Shown here: positions 13,206-20,735 of the stretch, in pieces
How positions within the stretch are numbered: the first letter of the stretch is position 1
Layout: the number at the start of each line of letters is the position of its first letter
Assembly: GCA_038861395.1 (NCBI GenBank)
Contig: JAWCDE010000001.1
Location: forward strand, 9,144-73,143
Length of the DNA stretch: 64,000 nt
Direction: 5' to 3'
From: Thermoproteota archaeon
Lineage (GTDB): Archaea > Thermoproteota > EX4484-205 > JAAOZP01
Made by a program: the position numbers and the translations under genes
Notes under the pieces: generated by a model
Database searches by the model: none
What the model was told of the DNA's origin: nothing
Seen by the model: the letters and a program-made list of their open reading frames with translations, nothing else

Positions 13206-14306
13206 TTAACGCTTAAAACCTGCTCCACTAACCCTGTAGCCTCCGGGAGAGCCTACTTCACCGTACACTTCGAACCTAACGGGTAGGAAAAGCTCCACGA
13301 GTCGTATTGTCGTCAAAGTATGCAGCGTAACCTCGTGCGTTCTTAATTCTGAAACCCCGTCTGCAAGGGCTGCGTAGACTACAAGCTGGTCGGCCAGATT
13401 CCTGTCTGCAGGAGCCCTATGCTCAACCTGCCTAATGAACTCTGAAGCCGCCTCGCCACCGACCTTCTCAGAAGGCTTACCCCTCTCCCCCAGGGCGCTG
13501 GATGCGAAAACCGTGTCGTCTTCAAGCGTCCCAATTATCAGTATTCCACAACCGGGGTCTAGGGAAGCATTACGCTCCTCCCCGCTCAGAACCTCGTATT
13601 CTACCGTCGGCTCTACCTTAAGCCTGCTCCTTATCTGAGAAGAGGCTGAGCCAGCGATCCTCTCAGCCACGTGCCTCGGCAGCCTGGAGCTGTAGACGAA
13701 AATCTTAACGCTTTTTAAGCCTGGGAAGTCGGTGATGAGGAGGGGCTTGAGGCGTTCAACAGGCTTCGATTTAAACCGTACTATCCCCCCGCCCCTCGGG
13801 TAGAACCCCCTCCGCTCAACGCTTATGTCGACAAAGTATCCCATTCTCGAAAGATTCTTAGCCAAGACCTCTCTAACGTAGTCTATTGGCGGTGCCCTAG
13901 GGTTATCCGTACCCCCTTTGAGAACCAGCGTAACCTCTCTCTTGGAGAATGCTAGAACAGGCATCATCGCCTGAAGAACAAGCGATATACTTCCAGCAGT
14001 GCCCACGTCAAGCTCAATGTCTGAAGCCTTAACCTCGCCCGGGGAGAATAATATCTGACTGGAGCCAACACTCAGCCCTTCAACCCTAGCCCCGGTTAAG
14101 CTCGCCACAGCCTTCACAGCGGCGAGGTGCTGAGGCCTTAAGCCGGGGTTTGAACGCTTAGCCCTGATGTTAAACACTTTAACTGGTTTCTTCAAGAGTG
14201 CTGAAAGAGCCACTGCTGTCCTTAAGACCTGTCCACCACCCTCGCCCATGGAACCATCTATTTCAAGCGTTTCAACCATGCTGATACTCAGCATACACTC
14301 CGTCAT
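13206..14306 (-). CDS. rtcA: RNA 3'-terminal phosphate cyclase
   Basis: 366 aa; LEIDGSMGEGGGQVLRTAVALSAL... and SNPGLRPQH (catalytic His region). Confidence 0.75.
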   Translation of the reverse strand: MTECMLSISMVETLEIDGSMGEGGGQVLRTAVALSALLKKPVKVFNIRAKRSNPGLRPQHLAAVKAVASLTGARVEGLSVGSSQILFSPGEVKASDIELDVGTAGSISLVLQAMMPVLAFSKREVTLVLKGGTDNPRAPPIDYVREVLAKNLSRMGYFVDISVERRGFYPRGGGIVRFKSKPVERLKPLLITDFPGLKSVKIFVYSSRLPRHVAERIAGSASSQIRSRLKVEPTVEYEVLSGEERNASLDPGCGILIIGTLEDDTVFASSALGERGKPSEKVGGEAASEFIRQVEHRAPADRNLADQLVVYAALADGVSELRTHEVTLHTLTTIRLVELFLPVRFEVYGEVGSPGGYRVSGAGFKR

Positions 14307-14358
14307 AAAAGCTTATTTCCGACCCTGGTTATGTGGAGGCAAAGGTGATTTGCAGAAT

Positions 14359-14955
14359 ATGGGTGAGATAGTACCGGGTGCAACGGTCGTCGGATTAGTA
14401 TACGACAGCGGGGTCGTACTTGGGGCTGATAGAAGAGCGGCATACGGCACCTTCGTATTAGGGAAATCGGTTAAGAAGATTTTTCAAATAACCCCGCGGA
14501 TAGGCCTCGCCTCAGCCGGGTTGATCTCGGACGTTCAGACGATAGTGAGGGAGCTCAACTATCATGCTAGAATGTTCAAGTACAATACTTCTAGGGAGAT
14601 AACTGCGAAAGCACTTTCAAAACTATTGTCTAATATTCTCTTTGCGAACAGGCTCTTTCCCCTTATAACGCAGACGCTAATAGGCGGATTCACCTTCGAC
14701 ACCCACGGAATATATGTGCTGGACGCGCTGGGCTCAGTGATAGAGGACAAGTATGCTGCCGCGGGAAGTGGAACAGAGATAGCGCTTGGAATACTGGAAG
14801 CAGAGTACAGGGACGGTATGAACATAGTTGAAGCGAAGGAGCTTGCTTTGAAGGCGATAAGAACCGCCCTGCAGAGAGACTCGGCGAGTGGAAACGGCAT
14901 AGACCTGCTTATACTAGATAAAGCCGGCCCCATCGAGGAAAACTACCCGGATTAG
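14359..14955 (+). CDS. psmB: Proteasome beta subunit (paralog 2). The six-frame ORF starts at 14167, but the likely start is the ATG at 14359 (MGEIVPGA|TVVGL...)
   Basis: GATVVGLVYDSGVVLGADRRA Ntn-hydrolase N-terminus; upstream extension would overlap rtcA. Confidence 0.7.
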   Translation: MGEIVPGATVVGLVYDSGVVLGADRRAAYGTFVLGKSVKKIFQITPRIGLASAGLISDVQTIVRELNYHARMFKYNTSREITAKALSKLLSNILFANRLFPLITQTLIGGFTFDTHGIYVLDALGSVIEDKYAAAGSGTEIALGILEAEYRDGMNIVEAKELALKAIRTALQRDSASGNGIDLLILDKAGPIEENYPD

Positions 14956-15014
14956 AAACACTGAGAGATTCCTCTGGGAGCTTAAAAACAGTTATAGAAC
15001 ACTATTAAAAGACA

Positions 15015-15341
15015 GTGAGCGTAATCCGCTCCGAAGACCTGAAAGACATTGCAAAACACTACGGCGAGCTGAGGCTTAAAACACTAAGTAGCCTCAGAAA
15101 GATAAACGACTATTCGATGATCCTTTTCAAAGCATTCCTGCAGTACGTTGAGAAGAGAAGGGGGGAAGGCCTAGAACTCCACGTCTTATTAGAGGAGTTT
15201 TTATCAGGCGAGCTGGCTCTAAACAAAGAGGAAGATAGGAATACGAGGCTCTCCCTAGCCAGAAGGTTCTGCAATCTTGCTAAGAAGCATGTTCGAAGCC
15301 CTGAGGAACAAGCCAGTATCCTGAAATACCTCGAATATTGA
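15015..15341 (+). CDS. Hypothetical protein
   Basis: 108-aa ORF with coding-like composition; no recognisable family. Confidence 0.3.
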   Translation: MSVIRSEDLKDIAKHYGELRLKTLSSLRKINDYSMILFKAFLQYVEKRRGEGLELHVLLEEFLSGELALNKEEDRNTRLSLARRFCNLAKKHVRSPEEQASILKYLEY

Positions 15342-15488
15342 GATACGTATCGTTTCCTTGGAAAACTAGGCTGGAGTTAAGCACGCATATATAGAAAGAA
15401 GGATTATTCTCCAGCCGCGTGGACAATGGTCTCCAGCGAACAAGCATAATGCTTAGAGCAGTAAGCTTCACACTTCTAAAAATAAGAA

Positions 15489-15775
15489 TTATCCGAAGAA
15501 CTCTGTAACGAGCCTGCGGCAATCCTCTAGCGCTTTCTTCACCTTGGGGAAAGGCTCCTGGGCCACGTTTTCATACAGGAAGCGGCCTACTGCGTGAACC
15601 TTCAGATAGTCCAGCCCGATGCTATCAGCACTGCCTTCACCGCACACTCAACACACTCCTGAAGATATTTCAACGCTCCAGCGTAATCCCTCTCCATTAA
15701 ACACTCTGTTGCATTCCTGAACTCACGCTCCGCGCTTCTGATAACTTCCTTCGCCCTCTCTTCGCTGCTTGACAT
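15489..15775 (-). pseudogene. HEPN-like domain gene split by a frameshift near 15601. N-part MSSSEERAKEVIRSAEREF...AVKAVLIASGWTI, C-part (other frame) LKVHAVGRFLYENVAQEPFPKVKKALEDCRRLVTEFFG
   Basis: N-terminal helices match the HEPN (PF05168-like) pattern; reading continues in the -1 frame after a TGA at 15602-15604; sits 5 nt downstream of a nucleotidyltransferase gene. Confidence 0.4.
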
Positions 15776-15780
15776 CTCGA

Positions 15781-16542
15781 CTACCCTGCCCCTATACTTA
15801 TCGACTCGCCGAAAACAGCATCCGGCTTTAAAACCCAGAAATAAGTTCCATCCGGGCACTCCACCCGCACGGTTCCCAGGGCGATGAGCGCTCTCCGCAG
15901 TTCCTCCATCAACCTCTGAAAGAACCCGTCCTTATCGTAGAGAACAGCCTTGTGAAAAATCATGTCAAGATATACCGGTTGAAACCTTGCAGCATACCCC
16001 CTACGGAACGACGCTGTAGTCACCTCCGGGTAATCGTAAAACCCGCGCATCTTAAACCAATAGTCGCAAGCCCTATACTCCCATGTTGATTTAAATTCTT
16101 TGAATATGCTTGCTTTACGCCTCCAAACCTCTTTAGAATCGTCCTCAACGATGTAGAGCAAGTCAACATCGCTTTCGCCGGGTTTAAAGGAGTCTTCACA
16201 GAGGAACTGTAAACGACGAGGGAAATCAGATCGCCACCAAACTCCTTCAAAAAAAGTCAGACGCTTCAGTGAAATCCTCAGCCACCCGTGCCTGATCCTG
16301 GCTAGCTCTTGACCGGCTGATTTCCAAGCCTCGACTGTCCCAAGCAGGTTGTCGAAATCCTTCTCCGTTATCCTATACTCCAACCCGGCCCTCCGTATTA
16401 GGCCTCCCGCACTCAACTCGTTCAGCCTCCTGGTCAGGGTCCTGCTGTTCCTCACAGCCTCATTCAGCTCCCTAAACCTAGCCCCACCAGTGGAGAGGCG
16501 ATGCAAAATGTCGACAGCCCCAGCCCTTGAAAGAATTTCCAA
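15781..16542 (-). CDS. Winged-HTH (HxlR/MarR-like) fused to a minimal nucleotidyltransferase (MNT-like, GSxD motif GESDVDLLYIVEDD)
   Basis: 253 aa; N-terminal wHTH ILHRLSTGGARFRELNEAVRNSRTLTRRLNELSAGGLIRR; Pol-beta-like NTase motif in mid-region. Confidence 0.5.
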   Translation of the reverse strand: MEILSRAGAVDILHRLSTGGARFRELNEAVRNSRTLTRRLNELSAGGLIRRAGLEYRITEKDFDNLLGTVEAWKSAGQELARIRHGWLRISLKRLTFFEGVWWRSDFPRRLQFLCEDSFKPGESDVDLLYIVEDDSKEVWRRKASIFKEFKSTWEYRACDYWFKMRGFYDYPEVTTASFRRGYAARFQPVYLDMIFHKAVLYDKDGFFQRLMEELRRALIALGTVRVECPDGTYFWVLKPDAVFGESISIGAG

Positions 16543-16685
16543 CTCTCTCGCTGTATCCGAGTAAAGTAAACTCCGTCGCCTAAATAAACGATAGGCTTTG
16601 GAAACAGCCTATAAAGCAGGCGCCCCCATCTTCTTCGCCCCGCTCAGCATGCATTAGAATCGAAACCAGCGCCACAGGAGGCATG

Positions 16686-16748
16686 AAAAACACTACTTAA
16701 AAAACAATAGGGGCGAAAAATAAAAGACGCCGTTAAAAAACCAGAGTG
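16686..16748 (-). terminator. Oligo-T tracts and a short GGCG...CGCC hairpin immediately 3' of tuf (minus strand); probable archaeal transcription terminator
   Basis: Minus-strand sequence GGTTTTTTAACGGCGTCTTTTATTTTTCGCCCCTATTGTTTTTTAAGTAGTGTTTTTC directly after the tuf stop. Confidence 0.4.
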
Positions 16749-18110
16749 CTACTTAGCCTCAAACGGAACCTTTTCAGGAACCTCGGTCACGATGCCGGCG
16801 GCGATGGTCATCCCCATGTCCCTGATAGCAAACCTTCCAAGCTGCGGGAACTCTGAGTAAACCTCGATAGCAATCGGCCTCAAAGGCCTAAACTTAACGA
16901 TCGCAGCGTCACCGGTCTTCAGGAAATCAGGCTTCTCCTGAATAACCGCGCCAGTACGAGGGTCAATCTTCTTCTGAAGCTCCTCGAAAGTACAAGCAAC
17001 CTGCTCAGTATGTACGTGAAGCACAGGAGTGTAGCCGGCGGCGATAGCAGTCGGATGCCTGATAACGATAATCCTGCCTATGAAAGACTTCGCGACAGTC
17101 GGCGGGTTATCAGGATAACCCATAACCATGCCCCTCCTTAACTCCTGCTTGGAAACACCCTTAACAGCCATTCCAACGTTGTCACCAGGCTCAGCCTTCT
17201 CAAGCTGCGTGTGATGCATCTCAATAGTCTTCAACTCAACAATCTTATCCAGAGGCCTAATAACAACCCTAGTATTAGGCTTCAACACACCGGTCTCAAC
17301 CCTGCCAGCGGGAACAGTGCCAACACCCGGGATAGTGAAAACCTGCTGAAGCGGAATCCTCAAAGGCTTGTCAACAGGCCTAGGCGGAGGCTGAAACGCG
17401 TCAAGAGCCTCAATCAACGTGGGACCCTTGTACCAAGGCATCTTATCACTAGGCTTAACAAGATTATCACCAGTCCAGCCACTGATGGGGATAATAGGAA
17501 TCGGGTTCTTCTCAAGGTTGAAACCAATACGCCTCAGCAAATCCTCAACATTCTTCTTAACCTCGTTAAACCTATCCTGACTCCAGTTAACAGAAGGATC
17601 ATCCATCTTGTTAACACCGATGACGATCTGCCTAACGCCGAGAGTAAACAGCAGGAAAGCATGCTCAGTAGTCTGACCCTCAGGACTAGTGCCAGCCTCA
17701 AACTCACCCTTCTTAGCAGAAACAATCAGCAAAGCACTGTCAGCCTGACTAGCACCAGTAATCATATTCTTTACGAAATCACGATGGCCAGGAGCATCAA
17801 TAATAGTATAGTAATATTTCTTTGTTTCGAACTTTACGTATGCCGCGTCGATGGTTACGCCGCGCTCACGCTCCTCCTTCAGCTTGTCGAGAACCCACGC
17901 GAACTTGAAAGTATCGCCGAGACCAGTCTTAGCAGACTCCGCCTCCAGCTCCCTCATCTTCCTCTCGTCAACGTAGCCGGTCAAGTAGAGCAAGTGGCCA
18001 GTAGTAGTACTCTTCCCATGGTCAACATGACCGCAGACCACGAGATTCAAGTGTGGTTTGCTTGACGAACTCATCTTTCTTTTTCCTCCTTGCTGTCCCA
18101 ATAGCTTCAT
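16749..18110 (-). CDS. tuf: Translation elongation factor 1-alpha. The ORF is open from 18110; the likely true start is M13 (MSSSSKPHLNLVVCGHVDHGKST) at about 18074
   Basis: GHVDHGKST P-loop, DAPGHRDF, NKMD GTPase motifs; 453 aa. Confidence 0.9.
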   Translation of the reverse strand: MKLLGQQGGKRKMSSSSKPHLNLVVCGHVDHGKSTTTGHLLYLTGYVDERKMRELEAESAKTGLGDTFKFAWVLDKLKEERERGVTIDAAYVKFETKKYYYTIIDAPGHRDFVKNMITGASQADSALLIVSAKKGEFEAGTSPEGQTTEHAFLLFTLGVRQIVIGVNKMDDPSVNWSQDRFNEVKKNVEDLLRRIGFNLEKNPIPIIPISGWTGDNLVKPSDKMPWYKGPTLIEALDAFQPPPRPVDKPLRIPLQQVFTIPGVGTVPAGRVETGVLKPNTRVVIRPLDKIVELKTIEMHHTQLEKAEPGDNVGMAVKGVSKQELRRGMVMGYPDNPPTVAKSFIGRIIVIRHPTAIAAGYTPVLHVHTEQVACTFEELQKKIDPRTGAVIQEKPDFLKTGDAAIVKFRPLRPIAIEVYSEFPQLGRFAIRDMGMTIAAGIVTEVPEKVPFEAK

Positions 18111-18161
18111 AGAGGGATATTTAAGGTTTAAGGCGTTTGAAGGATGGAAAAAGCTTGTTAA

Positions 18162-18244
18162 AGGGGTGTCTTAAGCGACGCTGATTTCAGCTATTACGAA
18201 CAGGAGCTCAGGGATGCTTTAGGAGGAGACACGAGTTGGCTAGT
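18162..18244 (+). repeat. Repeat L, copy A: 84-nt near-identical copy of the 3' end of the 18937-19395 gene (last ~24 codons ...SVLSDADFSYYEQELRDALGGDTS*), lying in the tuf–Y1 intergenic space
   Basis: Matches 19317-19400 with 2 mismatches. Confidence 0.8.
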
Positions 18245-18271
18245 GATCTGACATGGACTTGAATAATCATT

Positions 18272-18862
18272 TTAATCCCATTTGCAACTAAGCCTCCATC
18301 CTCTTTCCTTTATGAGTTTTTCGGCCTCCTCCTTCGTAAGCACGACGGAAAAAACTGCTTGATCTCCATCCAGGAGCTTATAGTACTGATATCCTGTGTC
18401 CTCAATTAGACCGTTTATCTTACTCATTATGTGATTAATCTGAAGCAGGTCCGTGTAAAAATAAAAATCGATGGTATGCCTTTCTCCCTTGAATGTGAAG
18501 TGGATGTGTGCACCATGGCCAAGCCACTCCTCTCTTATATCCGTTGGTTGAAACACCCCCCTCGAGATCTCAGCAATTTCTTTGAAAATATTTGTGGCAA
18601 GACCTTCATACAGGCTCACCATCTCTATATCTCTTCCCCATATCCTCTTTTTATCATAAATCGCTGCAAGGACATCAACTTCATAAACGCTCATCCTCAT
18701 CCACCTTTCTTCTTCCTCTTTTGTTCCAAAGTACTTTAAAGAAATACTTTTCTCCTTCAATTTCTCGAAAATCTCCTCGGAAGAAAGGTTGGAGTATTCT
18801 TCGAAGAACCCTAGTTTTCTAAGGTATTCTATCGACTCTATGAAGCGCTCCCTCGCACCCAT
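18272..18862 (-). CDS. Hypothetical protein Y1 (196 aa), paralog of 19454-20050
   Basis: First ~39 codons nucleotide-identical to Y2; remainder homologous at ~40% (ISRGVFQPT, TGYQYY, EEAEKLIKERGW blocks). Confidence 0.6.
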   Translation of the reverse strand: MGARERFIESIEYLRKLGFFEEYSNLSSEEIFEKLKEKSISLKYFGTKEEEERWMRMSVYEVDVLAAIYDKKRIWGRDIEMVSLYEGLATNIFKEIAEISRGVFQPTDIREEWLGHGAHIHFTFKGERHTIDFYFYTDLLQINHIMSKINGLIEDTGYQYYKLLDGDQAVFSVVLTKEEAEKLIKERGWRLSCKWD

Positions 18863-18901
18863 CTATTTTAAGTTAAGTAGTGTCATAAGGCTTTTAAGCA
18901 T
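18745..18901. repeat. Repeat R, copy A: ~155 nt covering the 5' end of Y1 (about the first 39 codons) plus ~40 nt of upstream region; near-identical to 19934-20086
   Basis: Direct comparison of the two segments; single 3-4-nt indel in the noncoding part. Confidence 0.8.
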
Positions 18902-18936
18902 AACCAAAATACAGAGAAGGCCTTGCGAGGAAGAAG

Positions 18937-19395
18937 GTGAAGCTTGAGATCTGCGGGTACGTGCCTGAGCTACACTTCCCGAAGCACTTCTCGCTACCCT
19001 TCTTAGAGGGAGATGTTTTCTTAGACCTCGTCGAAGGAAGCCTGAAGGTAAGCGGCTTCAAGGTAGAGGGGTTCGAACTTGGGGAGACGGTTAAGCATTT
19101 TGCAAACAAGGTTAGACATGTCCAATACTTCTTTAAGATAGGTAGCGAGAAATATTTCTTAGACATTGTTCTGGAAAATGCTTTGGTTGAGTCGAAGTAC
19201 TGGCTGACTGGAAGAACCTATAGAGAGCACTTTAACGATTTAGTTGAGCAATTGAGAGAATATAAAAAGGCTGCGAAGCAGCTGGGGAAAGACAAGGTCT
19301 ACTTGGTCTTCGGGAAAAGGAGTGTCTTAAGCGACGCTGATTTCAGCTATTACGAACAGGAGCTCAGGGATGCTTTAGGAGGAGACACGAGTTAG
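18937..19395 (+). CDS. Hypothetical protein X (152 aa), GTG start; convergent partner of the Y genes
   Basis: ORF MKLEICGYVPELHFPKHFSLPFLEG...; its 3' end is duplicated at 18162-18244. Confidence 0.5.
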   Translation: MKLEICGYVPELHFPKHFSLPFLEGDVFLDLVEGSLKVSGFKVEGFELGETVKHFANKVRHVQYFFKIGSEKYFLDIVLENALVESKYWLTGRTYREHFNDLVEQLREYKKAAKQLGKDKVYLVFGKRSVLSDADFSYYEQELRDALGGDTS

Positions 19396-19400
19396 CTAGT
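19317..19400 (+). repeat. Repeat L, copy B (3' end of gene X plus 5 nt downstream)
   Basis: See copy A. Confidence 0.8.
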
Positions 19401-19453
19401 CATTTGCCACGGCTTCGATGAGTTTGATAAAGCATATGCAGAAGGTTAAAACA

Positions 19454-20050
19454 TCACCATATACCTTTGAGAGCCCATCCTCTCTCATTTCTCAGCTTTC
19501 TTGCCTCTTCAGGCTTAAGGACGATGAAGAGATACATATCCGGGTGGCGGATCTGGTAATACCGATATCCAGTATATTGTATCAACCAGTTTATATGGTT
19601 TAGAGCACGGCCGAAGTTCCAGCGGTCTTTCACACTCCAAAGGAATTCAACCATCCTGCCTTCCCTCTTGTAGACGAAGTAAACTCTACAGAAGCCTGTA
19701 TCAAGCCCCAGCACCCTATCTTCCTCGATCCTACATTCTTCACGTAGGTTAGTTGGTTGGAATGCTCCCCTCGATATGCTAGCCAAACCGTTCAAGAACT
19801 TTAAGCCAACATCAGGGTTAGGAGGATAATCGAACTCCCCACCCCATACTCTTTTCTCGTCGAAAATTGCGACAAACCTATCGATTTCAAAATCGCTCTC
19901 TTTAGACCAATCTTCCTTCTCTATTTGAATAACACTTTTCTCCTTCAATTTCTCGAAAATCTCCTCGGAAGAAAGGTTGGAGTATTCTTCGAAGAACCCT
20001 AGTTTTCTAAGGTATTCTATCGACTCTATGAAGCGCTCCCTCGCACCCAT
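19454..20050 (-). CDS. Hypothetical protein Y2 (198 aa), paralog of Y1
   Basis: MGARERFIESIEYLRKLGFFEEYSNLSSEEIFEKLKEKS N-terminus identical to Y1; conserved ISRGAFQPT, TGYRYY, EEARKLRNERGW blocks. Confidence 0.6.
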   Translation of the reverse strand: MGARERFIESIEYLRKLGFFEEYSNLSSEEIFEKLKEKSVIQIEKEDWSKESDFEIDRFVAIFDEKRVWGGEFDYPPNPDVGLKFLNGLASISRGAFQPTNLREECRIEEDRVLGLDTGFCRVYFVYKREGRMVEFLWSVKDRWNFGRALNHINWLIQYTGYRYYQIRHPDMYLFIVLKPEEARKLRNERGWALKGIW

Positions 20051-20086
20051 CTATTTTAAGTAATGTGTCATAAGGCTTTTAAGCAT
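19934..20086. repeat. Repeat R, copy B (5' end of Y2 plus upstream region)
   Basis: See copy A. Confidence 0.8.
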
Positions 20087-20274
20087 TCGAAGCGGTTTAG
20101 CTAAAAGTGTTGTGGAGATAAGAAATCCATGCCTCTCTTCTCTAATTGCAGATGTTGATTACCATTTTTTTAGAGAATATTTTGGTGGAGGCTTTACGTC
20201 ATCGAGTCGCTTAAAGAACGGTTCAGACCGGAATGTATGTTAAATGATATAGAGTATTATCTAAAGGATTAAAA

Positions 20275-20508
20275 TTAAAGGAGCTTTATGAACTCTTCGA
20301 CTGTTAAGCCTGCTTGCCTTATGATTGCTCTTAGTGTTCCCTTGGCTATCTCTTTACGCTTTAGCACAGTTAGTCTTCGATGCGGTTTTTCTCTATGCCT
20401 TAGAATTATGTGGCTTCCAGTCTGATGGTCAACCTCGTAGCCGATTTTAGAAAGTGCTTTAACAACATCCATACCGGAGACTACTGGCAGCTTAGACATT
20501 AACCTCAA
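20275..20508 (-). CDS. hicA: HicA-family toxin (YcfA-like mRNA interferase); probable true start is the ATG at 20499 (MSKLPVVSG...)
   Basis: KLPVVSGMDVVKALSKIGYEVDHQTGSHIILRH matches the HicA dsRBD-like fold signature with a conserved His. Confidence 0.65.
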   Translation of the reverse strand: MRLMSKLPVVSGMDVVKALSKIGYEVDHQTGSHIILRHREKPHRRLTVLKRKEIAKGTLRAIIRQAGLTVEEFIKLL

Positions 20509-20671
20509 CCAGCTCTTCTTCTATGGATGGAGGAATCGGTTCATCATGCTTCTTCAAACTGGCTAAGTAGCCAGCGATAGCATCCTTAATATTTGAGATG
20601 GCTTCCTCTCTCGTCTTACCTTTAATTCTCCATTCTTTGTAAAAAATAGAATCGTTTTCACACCGATGATT
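20492..20671 (-). pseudogene. hicB: HicB-like antitoxin remnant, start-less: open frame ...EWRIKGKTREEAISNIKDAIAGYLASLKKHDEPIPPSIEEELVEVNV* with no in-frame ATG/GTG/TTG; an out-of-frame ATG (MLESSV*) lies just upstream
   Basis: GKTREEA...AI..YL block typical of the HicB/UPF0150 C-terminal half; the stop overlaps the hicA start region. Confidence 0.4.
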
Positions 20672-20735
20672 CTAACATTAGGTTGTTCGTTTTCCTTATC
20701 GTTCAAGTTTTTAATTTTAAATAACTGTTTTGATT

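Follow-up and report, generated by a model that had tools for sequence, protein, structure and literature searches.

Gene content and repeats of the Y1/X/Y2 array

The window (the whole stretch of 64,000 nt of archaeal DNA that was analysed) contains an array in which an open reading frame, X, lies between two related genes, Y1 and Y2, both on the opposite strand. X runs from 18937 to 19395 (+), begins with GTG and is open throughout its 152 codons, and its translation as quoted in the sequence-only reading was borne out. An SD-like motif, GAGGAAGAAG, precedes the GTG. The features of the array are listed below. In this list and in the text, "giant" denotes a large, predicted membrane protein encoded in related archaea, "tail" denotes its C-terminal part, and L numbers denote individual loci.

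18160-18263 (+): orphan remnant of the 3' end of a nuclease-type tail, comprising its last ~34 codons, beside Y1 (from repeat and protein match)
18272-18862 (-): Y1, 196 aa, intact Y-family gene of the "Y1 type"
18743-18901 (no strand): repeat copy 1, the Y 5' coding end (39 codons) and the upstream AT-rich, TATA-like region
18901-18903 (+): in-frame TAA exactly where the Y-promoter repeat ends; giant-gene-derived sequence begins at 18904
18904-19095 (+): N-terminal X segment (X-N), corresponding to about residues 1295-1359 of the L018 giant, 75% amino acid identity (blastx)
18937-19395 (+): X open reading frame, 152 aa, whose GTG aligns with an internal Val codon in the giant gene
19084-19098 (+): internal deletion junction (GETVK), with L018 residues 1360-1597 (238 residues) missing
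19084-19449 (+): PD-(D/E)xK-like nuclease core (E50, D76, E85-S-K87) and the ancestral C-terminus, now beyond the stop
19316-19412 (+): repeat copy 2 of the tail 3' tip, containing the identity switch relative to L018, L005 and L003
19393-19395 (+): premature TAG in place of a conserved Trp (TGG), which removes the conserved WLVICHGFDEF...G end
19454-20050 (-): Y2, 198 aa, intact Y-family gene
19931-20086 (no strand): second copy of the repeat formed by the Y 5' end and its upstream sequence

Two direct-repeat families link the two halves of the array. The tail-tip repeat pairs 18160-18256 with 19316-19412 (97 nt, 94% identity) and consists of the last 25 codons of X plus 17-20 nt, confirming the earlier proposal that the 3' end of X had been copied beside Y1. 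At the protein level, 18162-18236 matches X residues 128-152 at 96%, and with the X stop read through, 18162-18263 matches residues 128-161 at 88%. The second repeat comprises the Y 5' end and its upstream sequence (18743-18878 versus 19931-20066; 136 nt, 98%) and continues over 18880-18901 versus 20065-20086 (22 nt, 100%). Because these were the sole direct-repeat families of at least 40 nt when the whole 64-kb window was scanned, a chance origin of the repeats was excluded. A near-palindromic AT-rich box, GCTTTTAAGC, is found at 18889-18899 and 20074-20084, that is, ~30 nt upstream of each Y start codon and ~40 nt upstream of the X GTG; it could be a TATA-like element that acts in both directions.

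The window derives from a metagenome-assembled genome (MAG) and the repeats are about as long as a sequencing read, so we considered whether the 97-160-nt repeats had caused the assembly to join strain variants. An independent MAG contig (L033; JAWBXZ010000018.1, GCA_038867595.1) is identical to window positions 13937-19219 at 99.98%, with 1 mismatch in 5,283 nt, and reproduces the order EF-1alpha, remnant, Y1, promoter repeat and 5' half of X, deletion junction included. This contig stops within X, at window position 19219, so that 19220-20086 is represented by the window assembly alone. Against an artefact, the remnant at 18160-18256 shares with X, at 100% identity over 19329-19368, an allele that diverges from relatives, which places both copies in one lineage; moreover, L028 has a comparable head-to-head junction of a tail fragment with a Y 5' end. 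An artefactual array is thus very improbable in our judgement. The L033 contig breaks ~100 nt before the 97-nt repeat, a possible sign that strains differ, or that coverage changes, in the X-tail/Y2 segment.

The array forms part of an island (18000-20700, containing X, the Y genes and HicA) with a GC content of 0.39-0.46, versus 0.49-0.54 in the flanking EF-1alpha and IMP dehydrogenase genes. Within the HicA/HicB region (20275-20508 (-) and 20505-20706 (-)), the HicA toxin gene is intact (Pfam E = 1e-17) and the upstream HicB is split over two frames, a 47-aa ORF at 20563-20706 and a frame that ends at the HicA start; the split HicB is either a frameshifted pseudogene or a sequencing error. 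On the opposite side of EF-1alpha from X and Y, an 85-aa HEPN-domain ORF (15602-15859 (-)) overlaps a 253-aa ORF (15781-16542 (-)) with a winged-helix N-terminus (HVO_A0261_N/HxlR-like), a layout over 15602-16542 that resembles a toxin-antitoxin pair of the HEPN/nucleotidyltransferase type.

Derivation of X from the tail of a giant gene

Pfam and NCBIfam scans of X, Y1 and Y2 returned no match, and a PADLOC scan of the same three proteins returned nothing but a Csn2 match for X (E = 6e-4). The latter was rejected as spurious, since it covers a helical region and is supported by no other member of the family. Relatives of X are rare: there were 3 matches in 5.8 billion proteins and 6 in 1.84 billion cluster representatives, a rarity that rules out X as a housekeeping gene. 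One relative, P0029, is an uninterrupted ORF of 618 aa, truncated where its contig stops, in which X residues 2-52 are followed by ~230 additional amino acids, then by X residues 50-152 and then by 18 residues past the X stop (...GGDTSWLVICHGFDEFVKAYAEG). Because a profile search of the protein database recovered few tails, further loci were gathered through their Y genes. One of these, L018 (Thermoproteota MAG JZ-2_201709_bins_51), contains a single intact giant ORF of 1716 aa. By blastx, window positions 18904-19095 match residues 1295-1359 of this giant (75%) and 19084-19437 match residues 1598-1713 (57%), so that X lacks 238 internal residues relative to it. P0029 and this two-block match rule out X as an intact member of a small-protein family.

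Both ends of X are also accounted for by the comparison. Homology to the giant begins 11 codons upstream of the GTG, which makes the apparent start an internal Val codon, and an in-frame TAA (18901-18903) at the exact end of the Y-promoter repeat marks a rearrangement junction. The TAG of X (19393-19395) sits where all relatives have Trp. Past this stop the X frame reads LVICHGFDEFDKAYAEG* to 19449, 4 nt from the Y2 stop; the left remnant has TGG at the corresponding position and its own TGA four codons on. The earlier assumption that X is an autonomous 152-aa gene had therefore to be abandoned on three counts, namely the two-block match, the internal Val start and the TAG in place of Trp. Judged from its sequence, X is an internally deleted, prematurely terminated fragment of a gene for a putative giant membrane protein. 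No parts of that gene other than the remnant and X were found in the 64-kb window, and the giant gene may be present elsewhere in this genome, outside the window.

Consistent signs of decay were seen in the divergence of the X tail, whose dN to L018 is 0.345 versus 0.115 between two intact tails (~3 times higher); a dN/dS value is absent for the X tail because synonymous sites are saturated. Decay is also found among relatives: the L003 frame is broken by two frameshifts and one in-frame stop, L001 ends behind the middle domain and L006 retains a 196-aa fragment. X is most likely non-functional or residual.

We examined the tails for conserved residues. In an alignment of 12 tails from different genomes, G-E, D, K and W positions are invariant or nearly so, the motif in X numbering being E50, D76, E85-S-K87 and W89. 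The first residue of ExK is E, Q or S depending on the tail, and a distant Brockarchaeota tail (L026) displays a textbook GPDF...IDVK. X carries the PD-(D/E)xK signature with E50, D76 and E85-S-K87 all kept, and the statement of the sequence-only reading that X has no recognisable motifs fails for this E...D...ExK core in its C-terminal half. The AF2 model of X has a pLDDT of 65 overall; residues 1-52 are poorly modelled (<50) and represent a broken domain, and residues 53-152 adopt an alpha-beta-beta-beta-alpha-beta-alpha arrangement at pLDDT 70-85 (H50-56, E59-68, E71-79, E82-87, H92-116, E120-125, H133-147) that includes the alpha-beta-beta-beta-alpha-beta core fold. A Foldseek search of X against the PDB gave no significant match; the top of the list (E 0.045-0.5) consists almost entirely of PD-(D/E)xK nucleases, including the arenavirus cap-snatching endonuclease, Card1, BstEII, RecE, Nt.BspD6I, Mus81 and EcoT38I. 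Pfam PDDEXK_9 matched 4 of the 12 tails weakly and NERD matched 1, all below the gathering score, and a PDB sequence-profile search with two tail alignments yielded nothing meaningful (KRas and SMAD matches at E > 0.09). The model topology, the weak fold matches and the weak PDDEXK_9 matches suggest that the C-terminal half of X is a PD-(D/E)xK-type nuclease core. The tails resemble that superfamily (PDDEXK_9, NERD, the Card1 nuclease domain) in placing E...D...(E/Q/S)xK on a helix and two adjacent strands, in their predicted alpha-beta-beta-beta-alpha-beta core and in having superfamily members as best structure and profile matches. They differ from it in that no match is significant, in that the domain ends a giant membrane protein and, for X, in truncation at both ends.

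The Y genes present a different picture. Y1 and Y2 are full length, and each keeps all 17 family-invariant residues. They are 46% identical overall with identical first 39 residues; Y1 shares 75% amino acid identity with the Y of L009/L022 and 64% with that of L006, and Y2 shares 90% with the Y of L018. dN/dS is 0.08 for Y2 versus L018 Y and 0.11 for Y1 versus L009 Y, within a range of 0.08-0.13 against the closest relatives. Y1 and Y2 look intact and constrained, and X looks decayed. The 5' end of Y encodes the best-conserved part of the family (RERFIESIEYLRKLGFFEEYSNLxSEEIFE). With the Y2 model (pLDDT 91) as query, Foldseek returned no PDB or BFVD structure at E ≤ 0.001, and a partial dsRBD-like match over ~79 columns was not significant. 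Isoelectric points and charges of Y proteins and tails displayed no clear signature of an acidic inhibitor. As the Y model is without known structural neighbours, a neutraliser role for Y would be pure inference, unsupported by homology.

Since X keeps its four putative catalytic residues and an SD-like motif, it could still be expressed and active. We therefore weighed whether X might be a functional miniaturised nuclease toxin with Y2 as its antitoxin, in other words a free-standing toxin-antitoxin-like module domesticated from a giant tail. Such a module would fit a frame open for 152 codons with a plausible start, the retention of E50, D76, E85 and K87 in a modelled alpha-beta-beta-beta-alpha-beta core, the intact Y2 directly adjoining X, and the presence of HicA and HEPN/NTase-type modules in the same island. 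It is disfavoured by the stop at the conserved Trp, with which the terminal strand and helix of X are lost, by a start codon that is an internal Val codon at a rearrangement junction, and by the raised non-synonymous divergence of X. Furthermore, the short form occurs in no second genome save the near-identical MAG, and the convergent orientation of X and Y2 precludes co-transcription. Type II toxin-antitoxin systems, such as the neighbouring HicA/HicB, are similar in setting a small putative nuclease gene beside a small acidic partner in an accessory island; they differ from X and Y, which are convergent and match no toxin-antitoxin family, with X derived from a giant gene. A functional mini-toxin thus appears distinctly unlikely to us, and we retain the reading of X as a relic.

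The giant-protein/Y system in relatives and its recombination boundaries

In relatives the tail and Y belong to a three-gene core, which was found in L007, L009/L022, L012, L013, L018, L021, L023, L025 and L026, in MAGs assigned to Thermoproteota, Brockarchaeota, Bathyarchaeia and, in one case, labelled Jordarchaeales. The first gene encodes ~380-440 aa that include a coiled coil and a signal or anchor segment, the second encodes the giant protein of 1,600-1,700 aa, and the third is Y, convergent with the giant gene and 0-10 nt from its stop (in L013 the two overlap). The giants have a signal-peptide-like N-terminus followed by an ectodomain of ~760 aa with 8-20 N-x-S/T sequons, and 2-3 predicted TM helices at about 760-960. 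In all giants examined, sequons are absent from the ~700 aa that follow the last helix, and the tail is therefore predicted, with hydropathy as the basis, to be cytoplasmic in the producer. Pfam scans of the giants and of the upstream genes gave coiled-coil noise only, and PADLOC matched none of the giants.

A convergent Y lies beside the tail in L003, L005, L006, L007, L012, L013, L014, L018, L020, L021, L023, L025 and L026, and one gene separates tail and Y in L009/L022. Every X-tail locus with enough flanking DNA has a convergent, adjacent Y-family gene, and in this survey no X homologue was found without a neighbouring Y, as expected if the two are paired. The suggestion that X and Y form a coupled pair was upheld insofar as the X-type domain and Y are conserved convergent neighbours; the real partner of Y is the giant tail, however, and not X itself. 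The toxin/immunity or sensor/effector roles suggested for the pair are candidates only. EF-1alpha lies near giant/Y loci or their remnants in the window (16749-18110), L001 (10722-12047), L006 (500-1729), L009 (1-1126) and L013 (4633-5937). In MAGs of both Thermoproteota and Bathyarchaeia it is found within a few kb, in two relative orientations; for a locus of accessory appearance, such constancy of position is unusual.

The giants are mosaics. The L001 giant combines an ectodomain 75% identical to that of L009, a TM region 67% identical to that of L007 and an L012/L005-type cytoplasmic module; likewise, the L013 giant is closer to L009 in its TM region and to L007 in its tail. The cytoplasmic middle modules are of at least two unrelated types, and the ectodomain is the most divergent module of all, at 27-75% identity.

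Arrays comparable to that in the window were found elsewhere. L009, L010 and L022 carry a giant tail, a co-directional 220-aa gene, an X-type tail remnant of 22-35 codons and a convergent Y1-type gene; L007 is the mirror case, a tail remnant there preceding a member of the 220-aa family; L017 has kept a 30-codon Y remnant; and in L028 a Y 5' end stands head-to-head with a tail fragment, as at the Y1/X junction of the window. The 220-232-aa genes (L009 6777-7439, L010 3762-4424, L017 771-1469, L007 1456-2124) form an unannotated second family, co-directional and overlapping start to stop with tails whose ExK is degenerate (QVR or SVK), and may be an alternative partner to Y. In L014 (4309-6762, Thermoproteota MAG), MazE/PIN and AbiEi/AbiEii genes lie between the giant gene and Y; the locus seems to attract toxin-antitoxin insertions. 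In addition, L015 (6609-7935) and L016 (156-1174) contain a distant Y relative, P0027, among three or four tandem matches to Y fragments, which suggests internal duplication or decay of Y genes; this stretch adjoins an unrelated-looking 2461-aa gene in divergent orientation.

Comparison of the window with L018, L005 and L003 located the boundary of exchange. Nucleotide identity is 47-72% over the X tail body (19083-19360) and 80-97% from ~19360 through Y2; L018 and L005 are 65-90% identical to one another across the tail body. The switch occurs at ~19340-19360, about 15 codons before the X stop and inside the 97-nt repeat, and this jump identifies the 3' tip as a real recombination boundary. 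The proposal that the C-terminal coding region of X and the X-Y spacer form a fixed "left end" of an exchangeable unit was thus right about the tip, which is a boundary both by the within-genome repeat and by the identity switch, but the "spacer" is the decayed continuation of the X frame. The pS of the X tail (0.77) exceeds those of Y2 (0.44) and X-N (0.45), so that simple decay is insufficient and the joining of a different tail allele near the tip is more likely.

The tails are 21-70% identical and all belong to one family. In a mirror-tree test, tail and Y identities were related with a Spearman coefficient of 0.38, the pairs being non-independent, and individual pairs were discordant: L007 and L013 share 62% in their tails versus 47% in Y, and L006 and L007 share 28% versus 63%. 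Because of this weak correlation and these discordant pairs, Y bodies appear to have been reshuffled relative to the tails, which, if anything, also argues against strict cognate toxin-immunity specificity. Taken together, the tail tip and the Y 5' end are the exchange points of the locus.

Origin of the array and relation to known systems

We consider it probable that X is a decaying orphan fragment of a giant gene, left by tandem duplication, deletions and exchange of the Y body, and propose that the intact system may pair a harmful tail with Y as neutraliser or regulator. In related archaea the intact system comprises a secreted or anchored protein of ~380-440 aa, the giant and a convergent cytoplasmic Y of ~200 aa. 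The giant gene is no longer present at this locus, which has kept the 34-codon tail remnant with Y1, and X with Y2. The most economical history starts from a tandem duplication of the unit made up of the giant-gene 3' part, Y and the Y promoter; deletions would have come next, and the Y body would finally have been swapped by homologous exchange, with the tail tip (...LRDALGGDTSWL...) and the near-invariant 5' end of Y as the two conserved flanks. X itself consists of the first ~64 codons of the cytoplasmic module joined through a 238-codon deletion to the nuclease core, and is shortened further by the change of TGG to TAG. Were the nuclease tail to act as a harmful effector that Y neutralises or regulates in the cytoplasm, this would explain why Y1 and Y2 have stayed intact, like orphan immunity genes, as X decays.

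The architecture resembles that of polymorphic toxin/immunity loci (CdiA-CT/CdiI, Rhs, WapA; Zhang et al. 2012, PMC3482391). As in those systems, a giant signal-peptide protein ends in a domain of apparent nuclease fold, a small partner gene stands directly beside its 3' end, the giant gene is a recombinational mosaic, 5'-truncated tails with partners form arrays (window, L009/L010/L022, L007, L017 and L028), and partner genes stay intact as toxin fragments decay. The large exported N-terminal part is found in the intact giants and not in X. Key membership features fail, however. The giant tail is predicted to be cytoplasmic rather than exposed outside the producer, a poor fit to a secreted toxin; Y is adjacent but convergent rather than co-directional, unlike the 220-232-aa partner family, which is co-directional; the tails are all of one fold and family instead of many unrelated toxins; tail and Y do not co-diverge tightly; and no delivery apparatus or processing domain was found in the giant/Y system. 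Furthermore, polymorphic toxin systems have been reported to be generally absent from archaea, except for some methanogens and haloarchaea (PMC3482391), and the hosts of the giant/Y system fall among the lineages reported to lack them in general. Function can only be inferred from this likeness of architecture.

The predicted topology also raises the question of whether the intact giant/Y locus is an antiviral sensor-effector of the abortive-infection type, with Y as a brake or regulator and the X and Y genes of the window as leftovers. The variable ectodomain would then sense virus at the cell surface and switch on the cytoplasmic nuclease. A tail that follows 2-3 TM helices and is predicted to lie in the cytoplasm, every N-x-S/T sequon preceding the final helix, would suit such a device, as would an ectodomain that is the most divergent module (27-75% identity) and a lower-GC island with toxin-antitoxin-type genes, together with the MazE/PIN and AbiE insertions in related loci. 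Yet no PADLOC model matched, orphan partners together with truncated tail cassettes characterise polymorphic toxin/immunity systems (PMC3482391) and not known Abi systems, and mobile defence islands would not usually keep one neighbourhood, here that of EF-1alpha, from Thermoproteota to Bathyarchaeia. We regard an antiviral role as a serious alternative, though less likely than not.

A bolder proposal, which we think unlikely, is that giant and Y form a new type of self/non-self or antagonism system of TACK archaea, in which a cytoplasmic PD-(D/E)xK nuclease, anchored in the membrane, is part of a surface receptor that recombines. With similarly low confidence, the nuclease might reach neighbouring cells by membrane fusion or vesicle exchange, or might be triggered from outside. 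The Y proteins could in that event be exchangeable protectors, with Y1 and Y2 retained as an "orphan immunity" repertoire once the weapon had gone, a proposal we make just as cautiously.

The closest archaeal analogue of the giant/Y system is VARTIG of the Thermococcales (Makarova et al. 2021, PMC8416519). That paper defines VARTIG by Ig domains, describes it as confined to that order, likens its organisation to polymorphic toxin systems and gives its function as unknown. The two have in common a large archaeal surface protein, a C-terminal part shuffled by recombination and variable neighbouring genes. The giants differ in having no Ig domain match, a nuclease-type end domain and another partner family (Y), and in occurring in Thermoproteota, Brockarchaeota and Bathyarchaeia.

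Viewed alone, X is an ordinary gene relic; the interest lies in the giant/Y system behind it. This three-gene system (secreted protein, giant with nuclease-type tail, convergent Y) carries no Pfam, NCBIfam or PADLOC annotation, and we found no description of it in the literature. Our analysis points to an undescribed recombining system in hot-spring archaea that varies on the theme of cassette-type conflict loci. It also defines two recombination boundaries, the tail tip and the Y 5' end, which lend themselves to testing with population metagenomes. If the giant/Y locus is a conflict or recognition system, it would extend polymorphic-toxin-like biology to TACK lineages and add a new partner-protein fold.
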